DNA from: a virus
Length of the DNA stretch: 25,903 bases
UHGV virus genome: UHGV-0320751
Direction: 5' to 3' (one strand)
Positions 1 through 5,305 of this stretch are shown here, piece after piece. Numbering within the stretch: the first letter of the stretch is position 1; the number at the start of each line of letters is the position of its first letter. A program made the position numbers and the translations under genes. The notes beneath the pieces were generated by a model. The model worked only from the letters and a program-made list of their open reading frames with translations, had not been told where the DNA came from and ran no database searches.

Positions 1-185
1 GTCATGAATCGAAGATAAGCAGAACGGACTGGAGATTTATTGCTTCGGTCTTGTGTGCTTTCGGAATGGCATCAGACATCAGTCCGATTAGCAGGGCTTT
101 TAAGTATGCGCTTGATGGACTCACCAATAAAAAACGCCCGGTGTGCAAGACCGAGCGTTCTGATCAAATACAAATGGAATTTTAA
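1..185 (+). CDS. cII: cII-like transcriptional activator, C-terminal fragment (5' end lies outside the window)
   Basis: Frame 3 is open from position 3 to a TAA at 183-185 and ends ...LTNKKRPVCKTERSDQIQMEF, matching the recalled C-terminus of lambda CII (...TNKKRPAATERSEQIQMEF). Not in the ORF track because it is truncated. Confidence 0.6.
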   Translation, partial: HESKISRTDWRFIASVLCAFGMASDISPISRAFKYALDGLTNKKRPVCKTERSDQIQMEF

Positions 186-207: not shown

Positions 208-480
208 ATGCGAAACAAAGGCTTTAATCCACCTGATACACACAAAGAAGTTAAGCGTTTGCGCTTCCTTCGTTCCATTGATGAAAGAACTCAAATCTCT
301 TTTGTGAAAGTTGCCAGAACTGAGCTTCTGAAGGCTGAGGCGAGGGCGTTGCTCCCGTCTCTACCAAAAGAGGAGGGATATACGTTCATTCCAAACGCAT
401 TTCTGGAAAAGCTGCTCAAAGAAGACATATCCGTAAGTCAGTTTAACGATGTTCTTAAGGTCTTTCGTCAAGGCAGGTAG
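208..480 (+). CDS. hypothetical protein between cII and the replication initiator
   Basis: ATG at 208 with an AGG Shine-Dalgarno 9 nt upstream; 90 aa. The track ORF 40..480 begins with TTG and its N-terminal part overlaps the cII frame, so the internal ATG is preferred. No family recognised. Confidence 0.4.
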   Translation: MRNKGFNPPDTHKEVKRLRFLRSIDERTQISFVKVARTELLKAEARALLPSLPKEEGYTFIPNAFLEKLLKEDISVSQFNDVLKVFRQGR

Positions 481-482
481 TT

Positions 483-1430
483 ATGAGCAATACAGCAAAA
501 ATCTACGATTTCAGCGCCGCACACGAGCGCAGGAGCAACAGGATGGAGAACCAGAAAACTGGTTACATTCCGTTGTACCGGAGCATTCTGAAACAGTCAT
601 GGGCGAAAGATGTTTATCTTCGCACCCTGTGGGAAAACCTTCTCCTGAATGCCGCCAGAAAGCCATACAAAGCGAATTTCAAAGGTCATGAATGGCATCT
701 GCAACCCGGTCAACTGGTTGTGACAGCAGCTGATTTAGGTCTTCAGTTATGCGACAGGCATGGCAAGCCGGCAAGCCGTGATCAGGTTGAGCGGATGCTT
801 CAGGTTTTTGTGAAAGAGGGGATGATCTCCATTGATGGAGAGAAGCAAAAAGGTCGTGTGATCACCATCACAAATTACCATGAATATGCTCAAAAAATGG
901 ACGATTCATCCGCACATGAAGCCGCACAAACAACCGCACATGATGCCGCACATGATGAAGCCAGTAATGGCGCTGCATTCAGCGTACATGCCGCACATGA
1001 AAGCGCACATGAAGCCGCACAAACAACCGCACATCATGAACAAGAAGGTATTAACAAGAATATAAATAATACCCCCCTACCCCCCAATGGGGGAGGCGAT
1101 GGGCAGGTTAAACCTGAACGTCGCAAGGCAGAACGCATCGACTACGAATCCTTCCTGAACGCCTACAACACCGAAGTCGGTGACAGACTTCCACACGCTG
1201 TTGCGGTCAACGAGAAACGCAAACGCCGCCTGAAGAAAATCATCCCGCAACTGAAAACGCCAAACGTGGACGGTTTCAGAGCGTATGTCAGGGCGTTTGT
1301 GCATCAGGCCAAGCCGTTTTACTTCGGAGACAACGACACGGGCTGGACGGCAGATTTTGATTACCTGCTGAGGGAAGATTCGTTAACGGGAGTTCGGGAA
1401 GGGAAGTTTGCAGACAGGGGGATTGCATGA
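483..1430 (+). CDS. replication initiator: lambda O-like N-terminal domain fused to a DnaT-like C-terminal domain
   Basis: N-terminus [10 protein letters not shown] resembles lambda O (MTNTAKILNF). The C-terminal region ([18 protein letters not shown]...[17 protein letters not shown]) resembles the DnaT/replisome-organizer domain. Sits directly upstream of a DnaB-like helicase and its stop overlaps the helicase start (ATGA). Confidence 0.8.
910..1038. repeat. putative origin iterons inside the initiator gene: two blocks of four 12-bp repeats (CCGCACA core)
   Basis: CCGCACA cores start at 910, 922, 934, 946 and at 991, 1003 (GCGCACA), 1015, 1027, all at 12-bp spacing. Followed by an AT-rich stretch (1040-1066) and C/G tracts. 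Same layout as ori-lambda inside O. Confidence 0.6.
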
Positions 1431-2803
1431 AACAGGATATCGAAGCGAGCGTTATCGGTGGCCTGCTGATTGGTGGATTAACACCAACCGCCAGCGACGT
1501 TCTGGCAACGCTGGATCCGGAAGCGTTTTCAATTCCGCTCTACCGGAAAGCCTTCGAGGTTATCCGCAAGCAGGCGCGAAACAGAAACCTAATCGACGCG
1601 CTGATGGTTGCCGAGGCGTGCGGAGAGGAGCATTTCACGTCAATCCTGATGACCAGCAAAAACTGCCCGAGTGCCGCAAATCTGAAGGGATATGCAGGAA
1701 TGGTCGCGGATAACTATCACCGCCGTCTGGTGCTGGAAATCATGGATGAAATGCGTGAACCAATTCAGAGCGGAACCATCGACGCATCGAGTCAGGCGAT
1801 GGATGAGCTTGTAAAGCGTCTTTCAGCCATCAGAAAGCCCCGTGACGAGGTTAAACCTGTACGGTTAGGGGAAATCATTACTGACTACACTGACACGCTT
1901 GACAGGCGTCTGAGGAACGGAGAAGAGTCCGATACCCTGAAGACCGGAATCGAAGAACTTGATGCCATCACCGGAGGGATGAACGCAGAAGACCTGGTGA
2001 TAATCGCTGCTCGTCCTGGTATGGGGAAAACCGAACTGGCGCTGAAGATTGCCGAAGGCGTTGCAAGCCGCGTTATTCCTGGTTCTGACGTCCGGCGCGG
2101 GGTATTGATTTTCTCAATGGAAATGAGCGCATTGCAGATTGCAGAGCGAAGCATTGCCAACGCCGGGAGGATGTCGGTTAGCGTACTGCGAAATCCTGCA
2201 TCGATGGATGACGAAGGCTGGGCGCGTGTTGCTAACGGCATGAGTCAGCTTGCAGATTTGGATGTATGGGTAGTCGATGCCTCGCGGTTATCGGTCGAAG
2301 AAATACGCTCAATCGCAGAACGGCATAAACAGGAAAATCCAAACCTGTCTCTAATCATGGCGGATTATCTTGGCCTGATTGAGAAGCCGAAAGCAGACCG
2401 CAACGACCTCGCAATTGCTCACATCTCCGGAAGCCTGAAGGCGATGGCGAAAGACCTGAAAACGCCTGTTATCTCCCTGAGTCAGCTTTCGCGCGATGTT
2501 GAGAAGCGACCAAACAAACGCCCGACAAACGCAGATTTGCGTGATTCAGGAAGCATTGAACAGGACGCAGACTCAATCATCATGCTCTATCGGGAAGCGG
2601 TATATGACGAGAACAGTAGCGCCGCACCATTTGCTGAAATCATTGTGACAAAAAACCGTTTTGGCTCGCTTGGTACGGTTTACCAGCGGTTCTGCAACGG
2701 ACACTTTGTTGCATGTGACCAGGATGAAGCCAGACAGATTTGCACAGCATCAAATGCGCCCGCTGCGCGTGGCAGACGATATGCACAAGGGGCTGACGTA
2801 TGA
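1427..2803 (+). CDS. DnaB-family replicative DNA helicase (phage-encoded)
   Basis: 458 aa with a DnaB N-terminal domain and Walker A motif [13 protein letters not shown], plus RecA-like C-terminal motifs. GGGGGA Shine-Dalgarno before ATG 1427. Confidence 0.9.
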
Positions 2804-2884
2804 CCATCTACATCACTGAGCTAATAACAGTGGCTATTTACACAGTAGCCCTTTTTTATTGGATTAAGAACTAGGGGGATCCTA

Positions 2885-4185: not shown

Positions 4186-4358
4186 GACGACAGCGACGAA
4201 GCATCACCGACATCATCTGCGAAAACTGCAAATACCTTCCAACGAAACGCTCCAGAAATAAACGCAAGCCAATCCCAAAAGAATCTGACGTAAAAACCTT
4301 CAATTACACGGCTCACCTGTGGGATATCCGGTGGCTAAGACATCGTGCGAGGAAATGA
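4182..4358 (+). CDS. ninE: NinE protein
   Basis: [23 protein letters not shown]... is near-identical to recalled lambda NinE. AGGAGG Shine-Dalgarno at 4171-4176; ATGA overlap with the ninB stop. Confidence 0.8.
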
Positions 4359-5305
4359 CGATGACTGCGTATTACAACGAAATAGATCCGTATGCAGCGC
4401 AATGGCTGCGTAACTTAATTGACGCTGGAGAAATTGCCCCCGGTTATGTAGATGAAAGGAGTATTGAAGATGTCACACCAGGTGATTTGCGAGGATTTAC
4501 CCAGCACCACTTTTTTGCAGGAATCGGAGTTTGGAGCTATGCACTTAGAAAAGCAGGATGGCCAGACAACAAGAGTATCTGGACAGGAAGTTGCCCATGC
4601 CAACCTTTCAGCTCGGCAGGCAAAGGAAAAGGGGTTGATGACGAGCGGCACTTATGGCCGGCATTCTTCTGGCTTATTGAAAAATGCAATCCTGGCATCG
4701 TTATTGGCGAACAGGTTGCAAGCGCAGACGGCCTCGCTTGGCTCGACCTTGTACAAACTGACTTGGAAGGTGCGAACTACACCTCTGCAGGTACCGATAT
4801 TTGCGCTGCGAGCTTCGGTTCTCCGCACATCAGGCAGCGATTGTATTGGGTGGCCTACTCCAACGACAAATATCAACTTTCAGCCAGAGACGCGCAGGGG
4901 AATTCAGAACCTATCTGGATGCGTGAGACTAGCGGGATGGCAAACTCCTTTAGCGAACGATGCAACAGGTTCAACGCATTGCTACAGCGGAAAAGACAAG
5001 AGCGGAACCCCAAGAATCTGCTTGAAACTTCCCGGGACGGTGAAGCTATGTACCCATTACCGGTTAACGGCTTCTGGAGAGATGCAGACTGGCTTTACTG
5101 TAGAGATGAAAAATATCGTCCAGTTAGACCCGGCTCATTCCCGATGGTTAATGGCATTGCCAAAAGCTTGGGACGAGGCAAGTCCACACTGGGAAGAATG
5201 GCAAAGCGCAATCAAGATCAGCGAATTATTGGATATGGAAACGCAATCAATGCAGAAGTAGCAACGGCATTCGTGAAAGTTTGTATGGAGGTTGTTAATG
5301 CTTAG
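4355..5305 (+). CDS. DNA (cytosine-5)-methyltransferase, orphan (no adjacent endonuclease)
   Basis: C5-MTase motifs are present: FFAGIGV (motif I-like), [13 protein letters not shown] (catalytic PCQ motif IV), GEQV (ENV-like), RQRLYW (motif VIII), IGYGNAI (motif X). Start overlaps the ninE stop. Confidence 0.85.

Follow-up and report, generated by a model that had tools for sequence, protein, structure and literature searches.

A known replication cassette from lambda-like E. coli phages carries two blocks of direct 12-bp repeats within its initiator gene

Results

Layout and distribution of the module

The DNA analyzed here (the window, a stretch of 25,903 nucleotides from the virus genome UHGV-0320751) comes from a lambdoid phage or prophage with phage-21-like virion genes. 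Positions 483-2803 contain two plus-strand open reading frames encoding 315 and 458 residues, and the initiator stop codon overlaps the helicase start codon in an ATGA at 1427-1430 (Table 1). The original prediction described this segment as a non-lambda replication module with a DnaB-type helicase in place of P, and this description was confirmed; the surrounding genome is lambdoid. The segment is nothing out of the ordinary, as this replication cassette is already on record from lambda-like E. coli phages. Over its whole length it is 97.6-98.2% identical to CUS-3, JEP4, Gally, HF4s and Kapi1, in which it is annotated as replication protein O plus a DnaB-like helicase, and it is present in hundreds of E. 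coli genomes. An IMG/VR scan with the N-domain returned 80 loci, every one at least 99% identical, indicating that this initiator allele is common.

The small ORF upstream of the initiator matches phrog_2519 across its full length (E 2.2e-57), and its counterpart in Kapi1 is annotated as hypothetical. Residues 55-88 of this ORF faintly resemble the beginning of the O N-domain (Phage_rep_O, E 0.047), at a score below the cut-off, and its membership in the replication module is uncertain. Downstream of the helicase gene, the terminator-like hairpin probably marks the end of the module by analogy with tR2 in lambda and L2 in P22; the P22 record has a terminator annotated shortly past gene 12. A search of the whole window against Rfam at the gathering threshold gave no match, and the oop-like terminator is therefore unconfirmed as oop RNA.

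Table 1 Features of the replication module (window coordinates)
Feature	Position	Strand	Sequence or basis
Small ORF, 90 aa	208..480	+	Ends 3 bases 5' of the initiator start; conserved phage ORF
Initiator gene, 315 aa, lambda O / P22 gp18 class	483..1430	+	ORF, phrog_345, relatives
Putative N-terminal origin-binding domain, residues 20-132, winged helix	540..878	+	Pfam Phage_rep_O
Iteron block A, four direct 12-bp repeats	910..957	+	CCGCACATGAAG, CCGCACAAACAA, CCGCACATGATG, CCGCACATGATG
Spacer between iteron blocks	958..990	+	SNGAA / AGTAATGGCGC core
Iteron block B, four direct 12-bp repeats	991..1038	+	CCGCACATGAAA, GCGCACATGAAG, CCGCACAAACAA, CCGCACATCATG
AT-rich tract, presumed DNA-unwinding element	1036..1072	+	AACAAGAAGGTATTAACAAGAATATAAATAATA; 79% A+T
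C-run/G-run element, conserved	1069..1094	+	AATACCCCCCTACCCCCCAATGGGGG; encodes TPLPPNGG
C-terminal domain, residues 205-315, P22 gp18-type, presumed helicase-recruiting	1095..1430	+	Relatives, AlphaFold2
DnaB-family replicative helicase, 458 aa, orthologue of P22 gp12 / HK97 gp55 / Eru2B	1427..2803	+	Pfam, identity
Intrinsic-terminator-like hairpin	2832..2860	+	GGCTATTTACACAGTAGCC then CTTTTTTATT; just 3' of the helicase stop codon

Domain composition of the helicase and the initiator

The second gene was expected to encode a complete DnaB-family helicase replacing the loader P, and the searches agree with this expectation. DnaB_N (PF00772, E 5.5e-13, 49.3 bits against a cut-off of 23) and DnaB_C (PF03796, E 9.5e-78, 261.5 bits against a cut-off of 27) were both detected, the Walker A motif GMGKT can be read in the sequence, and tblastn found no homologue of lambda P, DnaC or DnaT anywhere in the window. 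The protein scores under the NCBIfam equivalog cut-offs (335.7 against 385.25 for TIGR00665 and 311 against 498.65 for phage_DnaB). It is 90% identical to P22 gp12 across all 458 residues. Because DnaB-type activity has been reported for gp12 (Wickner 1984, cited in PMC8022706), the enzyme is predicted to act as a hexameric 5'-3' helicase/ATPase.

The initiator matches phrog_345 ('replication initiation O-like') over its full length (E 2.7e-99) and is 98-99% identical to the 'replication protein O' of CUS-3, JEP4, Kapi1 and Stx2a phages. A winged-helix domain at its N-terminus is connected by a disordered linker to a helical domain at its C-terminus. In the AlphaFold2 model, residues ~30-135 have a pLDDT above 93, the linker (residues 144-186) falls below 50 (40-50) exactly over the iteron-encoded stretch, and residues ~210-310 reach ~98. 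For the C-domain, AlphaFold2 gave five helices with a pLDDT of 91.6. Membership of the N-domain in the lambda O family, as originally predicted, was evident from a Phage_rep_O match (PF04492, E 3.3e-15, 56.8 bits where the cut-off is 28.7). Past the M-NTAKI-F start, similarity to lambda O is weak, as had also been stated (32% identity over 69 residues, E 0.005). The initiator is the lowest-scoring of the compared Phage_rep_O members (57 bits, followed by 114 for HK97 gp54, 123 for lambda O and 129 for P22 gp18), and profile and fold searches with its N-domain matched only winged-helix and DnaD-N/RepA-N proteins.

The C-domain is shared with P22 gp18 (60.5% identity over residues 190-312) and HK97 gp54 (94-97%). 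Together with the 90% identity of the helicase to gp12, this turns the proposed analogy to P22 genes 18 and 12 into real homology. Profile searches with the C-domain found no matching Pfam model and no relative in the PDB. An ordinary homologue search returned mostly near-identical fragments without useful Pfam labels, while an exhaustive search of cluster representatives yielded a family of 896 at E<=1e-3. Members of this family carry diverse N-terminal domains, including Phage_rep_O (32), HTH_36 (21), DnaD_N (9), DUF1376 (5), Lin1244_N (4) and others. Kinship with the C-domain of lambda O was considered and rejected, as lambda O and the C-domain profile aligned in hhalign with a probability of 0.2%.

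Iterons and spacer within the initiator gene

Eight 12-bp iterons in two blocks of four had been proposed within the initiator gene, and an in-register reading of the repeats bears this out. The units start at 910, 922, 934, 946, 991, 1003, 1015 and 1027, and Tandem Repeats Finder reported period-12 arrays at 910-955 (3.8 copies) and 991-1034 (3.7 copies). The repeats are direct and without dyad symmetry, and the start of block B lies 81 bp from that of block A. Seven units begin with CCGCACA and one with GCGCACA. CCGCACA occurs ten times in the window against 4.6 expected copies, a count reached in none of 100 shuffles, and seven of these ten copies fall within 910-1033.

In-frame reading also agrees with the prediction that the iterons encode a His/Ala-rich linker: the repeats are translated as the disordered stretch joining the two folded domains. 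The core CC/GCA/CA is retained even though the first codon specifies S, A or T and the third H or Q. The first codon ends in CC in seven of the eight units, the Ala codon is GCA in all eight against a background of 36% (P about 3e-4), and the H and Q codons both start with CA. The nucleotides of the repeats are better conserved than the residues they encode, which is a constraint at the level of DNA. Two overlapping open reading frames, at 880-1065 in another plus frame and at 906-1043 on the minus strand, were judged to be by-products of the repeats. The SNGAA / AGTAATGGCGC core of the spacer is kept in all relatives with the two-block origin type; Mulock, Yersinia 210.17, contig L011 and ENT1 all retain the spacer, including those with other iterons.

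The AT-rich tract and the putative origin

The AT-rich segment expected beside the iterons adjoins block B, and no other DNA in the module is less stable. It contains the 34-mer with the highest A+T content and the lowest stability in the two genes (-34.8 kcal/mol; mean -47.7, sd 2.9), at the 99.9th percentile of the whole window. The same tract also contains the joint of two mosaic modules, as HK97-type phages are homologous only from about window position 1054 on and the Mulock and Yersinia phages diverge from the window past the AACAAGAAT motif. The adjacent C-run/G-run element, which includes a small inverted repeat (CCCCCA/TGGGGG) at 1081-1093, is common to the window, L011, HK97, P22 and ENT1 regardless of iteron type. 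In lambda an inverted repeat lies to the right of the AT-rich tract, and the C-run/G-run element, being at the matching position, may by analogy play a similar role.

The iterons and AT-rich tract are placed in the gene where the lambda and P22 records annotate their origins, consistent with the original proposal of an origin at this site. By this analogy the region would function as an origin, and from the covariation across five loci described below the N-domain is predicted to bind the iterons. Our literature search found no experiment on this initiator allele. The two Eru papers (PMC8044961 and PMC8951638) mention iterons in neither case, and nothing specific was found on the repeat motif or on 12-bp iterons in lambdoid O genes, on which the subscription-only Juhala 2000 (HK97) and King 2007 (CUS-3) might hold something.

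Comparison with known replication systems

The module very likely represents the type known as genes 18/12 in P22, gp54/gp55 in HK97 and 'Eru2' in Stx phages, located in the early right operon. P22 shares the gene order and the overlapping stop and start codons, has its origin annotated inside gene 18, and displays an AT-rich tract followed by an ACCCCC..TACCCCC..GGGGG element as in the window. The N-domain of P22 gp18, however, lacks BLAST-level similarity to that of the window and has only the Pfam family in common. With HK97, DNA identity is ~97% from window position ~1054 to 2803, a span comprising C-domain and helicase; gp54 is annotated there as 'similar to P22 Gp18' and gp55 as 'similar to DnaB'. 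An initiator with a 458-aa DnaB helicase has been named Eru2A (273 aa) and Eru2B (458 aa) (PMC8044961), and HK97 and Eru2A both differ from the window in their N-domain and in having lambda-style palindromic iterons. The 315-aa initiator allele also occurs in many Stx2a phages, and these probably correspond to the O121:H19 phages that PMC8951638 assigns to Eru2.

Lambda O has an N-domain of the same Pfam family with a common MxNTAKI start, its gene contains an ori in which iterons, AT-rich tract and inverted repeat follow in the same order as in the window, and the O and P genes overlap by 4 bases as the initiator and helicase genes do here. In contrast, the C-domains are unrelated, and the window carries a DnaB-type helicase and no P. 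The iterons of lambda differ from those of the window in number, length and symmetry. Lambda, P22 and HK97 each have four palindromic iterons of ~20 bp spaced at 20/24/23 bp, an arrangement absent from the window with its 2 x 4 direct 12-mers. Since direct 12-bp repeats are unlike palindromic iterons, the binding mode of lambda O is not simply transferable to this initiator. By description, the window also resembles phage L, whose presumed ori consists of six imprecise 11-bp direct repeats (TGTCCAACGGA) in gene 18 of a P22-like module with a DnaB-type helicase gene 3' of it (PMC8022706); the repeat sequence of phage L is different and a two-block layout is unreported.

Mosaicism of the initiator gene

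By sequence comparison, the initiator gene is a mosaic of an N-domain with its cognate iterons and a C-domain that travels with the helicase, two exchangeable units joined in the AT-rich/C-run element. Mulock (Klebsiella) and vB_YenM_210.17 (Yersinia) carry the N-domain of the window type, CCGCAC 12-bp iterons in two blocks, the shared spacer and a AACAAGAA AT-rich tract, joined to lambda-O-like C-domains and followed by lambda-type P loaders; they are natural 'domain swap' counterparts of the window. Conversely, HK97, P22, Pasteurella Pmp10, Stenotrophomonas BUCT708 and the metagenomic loci L095 and L097 combine the gp18-type C-domain with other N-domains, and in all of them a DnaB helicase gene lies directly 3' of the initiator.

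Iteron sequence appears to change along with the N-domain. In relatives whose N-domains are 68-82% identical to that of the window the CCGCAC core is kept, arranged as 2 x 4 units in Mulock (82%) and 2 x 3 units in Yersinia 210.17 (76%). Relatives with 45-53% identity (ENT1 at 45% and L011 at 53%) have other 12-mers and keep the layout of two blocks with a 69-bp offset, spacer and AT-rich tract. Five loci, among which there are three iteron sequences, form the basis of this covariation; being so nearly identical, the 80 IMG/VR loci add no independent information to it. Iteron type is a trait of the exchangeable ori/N-domain sub-module rather than of the module type.

Discussion

Proposed mechanism and alternatives

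From these observations we propose that the N-terminal winged-helix domain would bind the eight direct iterons in its own gene and that the resulting nucleoprotein complex would, by analogy with ori-lambda, destabilize the AT-rich tract. The C-terminal helical domain would then recruit the DnaB-type hexameric helicase that the phage itself encodes in the translationally coupled downstream gene, as suggested by the co-inheritance of the C-domain with DnaB genes and by P22 genetics. Such recruitment would replace the lambda route, in which P hijacks host DnaB. Host primase and Pol III would complete the replisome, as expected from what is established for gp12 of P22 (Wickner 1984, cited in PMC8022706).

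The 12-bp repeats could instead be mere coding sequence for a low-complexity Ala/His linker without any DNA-level function, with the origin located elsewhere. The stretch is indeed translated in frame and predicted to be disordered, and linkers often evolve through repeat expansion. We nevertheless regard this explanation as quite improbable, as conservation favors the nucleotides over the residues, the layout recurs with other 12-mers as the N-domain diverges, and the array sits at the iteron position of lambda and P22, right beside the module's least stable DNA. Even less credible, to the point of being nearly dismissed, is an O/DnaT chimera whose C-terminus acts as a DnaT-like ssDNA-binding adaptor handing over the helicase, following the original description of the C-terminus as DnaT-like. 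None of the tools gave support to it. Pfam DnaT (PF17948) at E<=10 matched neither the C-domain nor any of 122 full-length and 59 trimmed relatives, while E. coli DnaT itself, as a positive control, matched at 3.7e-21. Profile searches of PDB sequences with the C-domain returned no DnaT although the library holds six DnaT sequences, and no DnaT-like fold was found for the domain. Likewise, hhalign against E. coli DnaT gave a probability of 0.2% (E 0.26), and tblastn of DnaT on the window produced only noise outside the initiator gene. The sole hhalign alignment contains a W-x-D-x-D-F/Y-like string (GWTADFDYL in the window, DWQPDADFI in DnaT), which may have prompted the idea. Of the domains that the original prediction led one to expect, Phage_rep_O, DnaB_N and DnaB_C were thus found and DnaT was not; the initiator is chimeric as a mosaic of N-domain/iterons and gp18-type C-domain/helicase, and not as a fusion of O and DnaT.

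Helicase loading might also need host DnaC or another factor, with host DnaB, primase or a chaperone as the partner of the C-domain. Among six distant C-domain family members sampled, a DnaB gene lies next door in two and is absent nearby in four; as the link to DnaB is not universal, the C-domain may contact something besides or instead of the helicase. The many kinds of N-terminal winged-helix domains to which it is fused further suggest that it serves as an adaptor of general use to some conserved component of the host. Against this, a DnaB gene lies directly 3' in all closer relatives examined, mostly with overlapping stop and start codons, P is the partner when the same N-domain joins a lambda-type C-domain, and the window has no loader gene. 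We therefore consider a different partner unlikely, if a more serious contender than the other two alternatives, and retain direct recruitment of the phage helicase as the preferred reading.

A further-reaching interpretation is that the putative origin belongs to a distinct and as yet undescribed sub-class of lambdoid origins that are bound as direct-repeat arrays, with the C-domain serving as a loader-independent adaptor for the DnaB helicase. In this sub-class, 12-bp iterons may be arranged head to tail in two blocks, three or four to a block, with a conserved spacer in between, and the O-family winged-helix domain may assemble on them in the way plasmid Rep monomers do, instead of forming dimers on four palindromes. 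We offer this interpretation tentatively and consider it possible but doubtful.

Significance

As textbook lambdoid mosaicism that is ~98% identical to annotated phages, the module has little discovery value in itself. The P22 replication type has been under study since the 1980s, and there is some practical value in that Stx phages are classified by Eru replication type, for which links to the stability of lysogens and to virulence have been described. What is mildly new is a putative origin with two blocks of three to four direct 12-mers, in which it is unlike those of lambda, P22 and HK97. One N-domain and its iterons occur here either with a gp18-type C-domain and DnaB or with a lambda-type C-domain and P, and these natural domain swaps offer a testable view of which half of the initiator sets the origin and which sets the helicase route. 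The gp18-type C-domain, representing a large family without a Pfam model or structure, would be a reasonable structural target for understanding loader-free helicase recruitment.

Identity of the replication module

The initiator and helicase genes lie on one strand, overlap at ATGA and together fill positions 483-2803. Pfam searches identified initiator residues 20-132 as a Phage_rep_O domain (E 3e-15; 56.8 bits, cut-off 28.7) and matched the helicase to DnaB_N (E 5.5e-13) and DnaB_C (E 9.5e-78), as expected from the original prediction of an O-family domain followed by a complete DnaB-family helicase. PHROGs labels the proteins 'replication initiation O-like' and 'DnaB-like replicative helicase', respectively. 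A tblastn search across the window for homologues of lambda P, DnaC and DnaT was negative and, with DnaB domains encoded downstream of the initiator, the proposal of a helicase in place of the loader P also holds. The helicase is 90% identical to P22 gp12 over its full length, while initiator residues 190-312 are 60.5% identical to the P22 gp18 C-terminus and 94% identical to HK97 gp54, whose record reads 'similar to P22 Gp18'. In the Stx-phage literature a Phage_rep_O-motif initiator and a 458-aa DnaB-domain helicase are named Eru2A and Eru2B (PMC8044961; PMC8951638). The module is therefore already known, and the suggested analogy to P22 genes 18 and 12 is true homology. It is also very common. 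Over its full extent, the 2.3-kb segment shares 97.6-98.2% identity with JEP4, CUS-3, Gally, HF4s and Kapi1, P22-like coliphages whose records annotate it as a replication protein O and a replicative or DnaB-like helicase. Dozens of Stx2a-converting phages carry the initiator at 98-99% identity and, among 5,426 complete E. coli genomes, the segment is present in part in 723 and to at least 80% in 268.

Features of the replication module and its surroundings
Feature	Position	Strand	Details
Strong intrinsic terminator	131-161	-	12-bp stem, then TTTTTTATTGG; within ORF 51-185
90-aa ORF	208-480	+	stops 3 bases ahead of initiator start; conserved phage ORF, phrog_2519 (E 2e-57)
Initiator ORF	483-1430	+	315 aa
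Iteron units (n=8)	starts 910, 922, 934, 946, 991, 1003, 1015, 1027		in register
Inter-block spacer	958-990	+	codes ..SNGAA..; DNA core AGYAAYGGCGC
AT-rich tract	1036-1072		directly after iterons; 79% A+T
C-run/G-run element	1069-1094	+	AATACCCCCCTACCCCCCAATGGGGG; small inverted repeat right of AT-rich tract
Helicase ORF	1427-2803	+	458 aa
Terminator-like hairpin, then T-run	2832-2860	+	just downstream of helicase stop codon
328-aa ORF	4319-5305	+	nin region
Virion genes (terminase, portal, capsid protease/scaffold, major capsid, tape measure)	~11450-25000		99.9% identical to phage 21

Flanking features

A cII-like ORF ending ...KTERSDQIQMEF contains the upstream terminator at its 3' end. The terminator resembles that of lambda oop RNA in position and sequence; it has no Rfam match at the gathering threshold. 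The 90-aa ORF is annotated in Kapi1 and unannotated in CUS-3. Its residues 55-88 bear a faint likeness to the beginning of Phage_rep_O (E 0.047), and the ORF may be left over from the 5' end of another O gene or encode a small accessory protein. The hairpin after the helicase is analogous in position to lambda tR2 and the P22 L2 terminator. From its sequence motifs, the nin-region product looks like a DNA cytosine methyltransferase.

A candidate origin within the initiator gene

Tandem Repeats Finder detected two period-12 arrays (910-955 and 991-1034), in which the eight units open with CCGCACA in seven cases and with GCGCACA in the other. The 25.9-kb window contains 10 copies of CCGCACA (4.6 expected), a count not reached in any of 100 shuffles; seven of the copies fall in 910-1033. 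The AT-rich tract is the least stable 34-mer of both genes (4.4 sd off the mean) and, window-wide, reaches the 99.9th percentile. Since ORF calls, repeat detection and stability analysis located the ORFs, eight 12-bp iterons and AT-rich segment as predicted, the original coordinates and description are correct.

The lambda and P22 records annotate ori within the initiator gene, just past the N-domain, which is also where the window repeats lie. By three lines of evidence, the repeats are constrained as DNA, beyond their coding for a peptide linker. The nucleotides CC-GCA-CA are kept in the eight units while codon 1 varies between Ser, Ala and Thr and codon 3 between His and Gln; GCA encodes Ala in 8/8 units versus 36% in the rest of both genes. 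Relatives with N-domains at 68-82% identity retain the iteron core and layout: both Klebsiella phage Mulock, with four units per block, and Yersinia phage vB_YenM_210.17, with three, have two blocks and the window core. Relatives at 45-53% identity (contig L011 and Enterobacter phage ENT1) keep the layout, with two blocks of three 12-mers at a 69-bp offset, but have different 12-mers; they share with the window the SNGAA-coding spacer and the AACAAGAA AT-rich tract. Iteron sequence thus varies along with the N-domain, as expected of a recognition pair. AlphaFold2 modeling of the full initiator yielded two confident domains joined by a linker (residues 144-186, pLDDT <50) that is exactly the iteron-encoded stretch. 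We infer that the initiator binds the iterons and that the segment has origin activity. No experiments on this allele turned up in a literature search, and neither Eru paper (PMC8044961, PMC8951638) mentions iterons.

The spacer is conserved in 5/5 members of this origin type (the window, L005 2976-3008, L009 2458-2490, L011 ~880-912 and L010 ~2415-2449), including those with differing iterons, which could reflect a host-factor site or peptide-level constraint.

The origins of lambda, P22 and HK97 contain four iterons each, of 18-22 bp with internal dyad symmetry, spaced 20, 24 and 23 bp start-to-start, whereas in the window origin type direct 12-mers without dyad symmetry form two blocks 81 bp apart (69 bp in versions with three units per block). 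The N-domain is a divergent Phage_rep_O member, scoring 57 bits versus 114-129 for lambda, P22 and HK97. Six imprecise 11-bp direct repeats have been reported in phage L gene 18 (PMC8022706), so the idea of short direct repeats is not new. We found no description of the two-block layout in the literature; it is the sole part of the finding with a claim to novelty, and a modest one.

Mosaic structure of the initiator gene

In HK97-type phages the match to the window begins only at about 1054. In Mulock and Yersinia 210.17 it stops at the AT-rich tract, past which these phages encode a lambda-type C-domain and then a lambda-type P loader. The C-run/G-run element is common to the window, L011, HK97, P22 and ENT1, regardless of iteron type. 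Together these alignments indicate that the initiator gene is built from two exchangeable units, N-domain plus iterons and C-domain plus helicase route, joined in the AT-rich/C-run region. Such exchange is the classical lambdoid pattern, and the lambda record marks recombination points just right of the lambda iterons. The element encodes TPLPPxGG, which recurs at the C-module start in many distant family members; the selected feature may be the DNA, in the form of a hairpin or a joint for recombination, or the peptide. PhiR63_2, the nearest overall relative (65% of the window aligned at 99.8% identity), differs in having lambda O/P/ren where the window has its replication module. With the phage-21-like virion genes, this indicates that the replication cassette has been swapped in a lambdoid background.

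L011 is a 2.7-kb contig (OR850084.1) that bears the name 'Staphylococcus phage SA 1298 Kay' and the mark UNVERIFIED_ORG. Its O protein is enterobacterial-type, with 62% overall identity to the window initiator and a nearly identical C-domain, and the organism label is probably wrong.

The C-terminal domain and proposed helicase recruitment

The original interpretation stood except for the proposed DnaT-like C-terminus, which we reject. The C-terminal 126 residues gave no Pfam match at E<=10 and no PDB sequence match. DnaT matched none of 122 full-length family members, and family profiles did not find DnaT among PDB sequences, though the library holds six DnaT sequences. Hhalign of the family against E. 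coli DnaT returned a probability of 0.2%, while E. coli DnaT, as positive control, matched PF17948 at 3.7e-21. The lambda O C-domain is also unrelated. The initiator C-terminus is instead a gp18-type C-domain, whose family lacks a Pfam model and a detectable solved structural relative.

An exhaustive search recovered 896 cluster representatives (E<=1e-3), with the domain nearly always C-terminal in proteins of 250-350 aa. The 122 members differ widely in their N-terminal winged-helix parts (Phage_rep_O 32, HTH_36 21, DnaD_N 9, DUF1376 5, Lin1244_N 4, Phage_rep_org_N 2), and one member matches Phg_2220_C (PF09524) weakly. The winged-helix domains fused N-terminally to it are of eight or more kinds (proteins P0035-P0176; alignments A1, A3).

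Most likely, the N-domain would bind the iterons, the AT-rich tract would open, the C-domain would recruit the phage DnaB-type helicase, and host primase and polymerase would then join. The recruitment step is put forward with moderate confidence on the basis of co-inheritance. A DnaB gene directly follows the gp18-type C-domain in HK97, P22, Pasteurella Pmp10, Stenotrophomonas BUCT708 and two metagenomic loci (L095 and L097), whereas P is the next gene when a lambda-type C-domain is joined to the window-type N-domain. Because DnaB is adjacent in only two of six distant family members sampled, the C-domain may contact a host component in some lineages. The remaining interest of the module lies in the two-block direct-repeat origin layout and in the gp18-type C-domain family, which is structurally uncharacterised.
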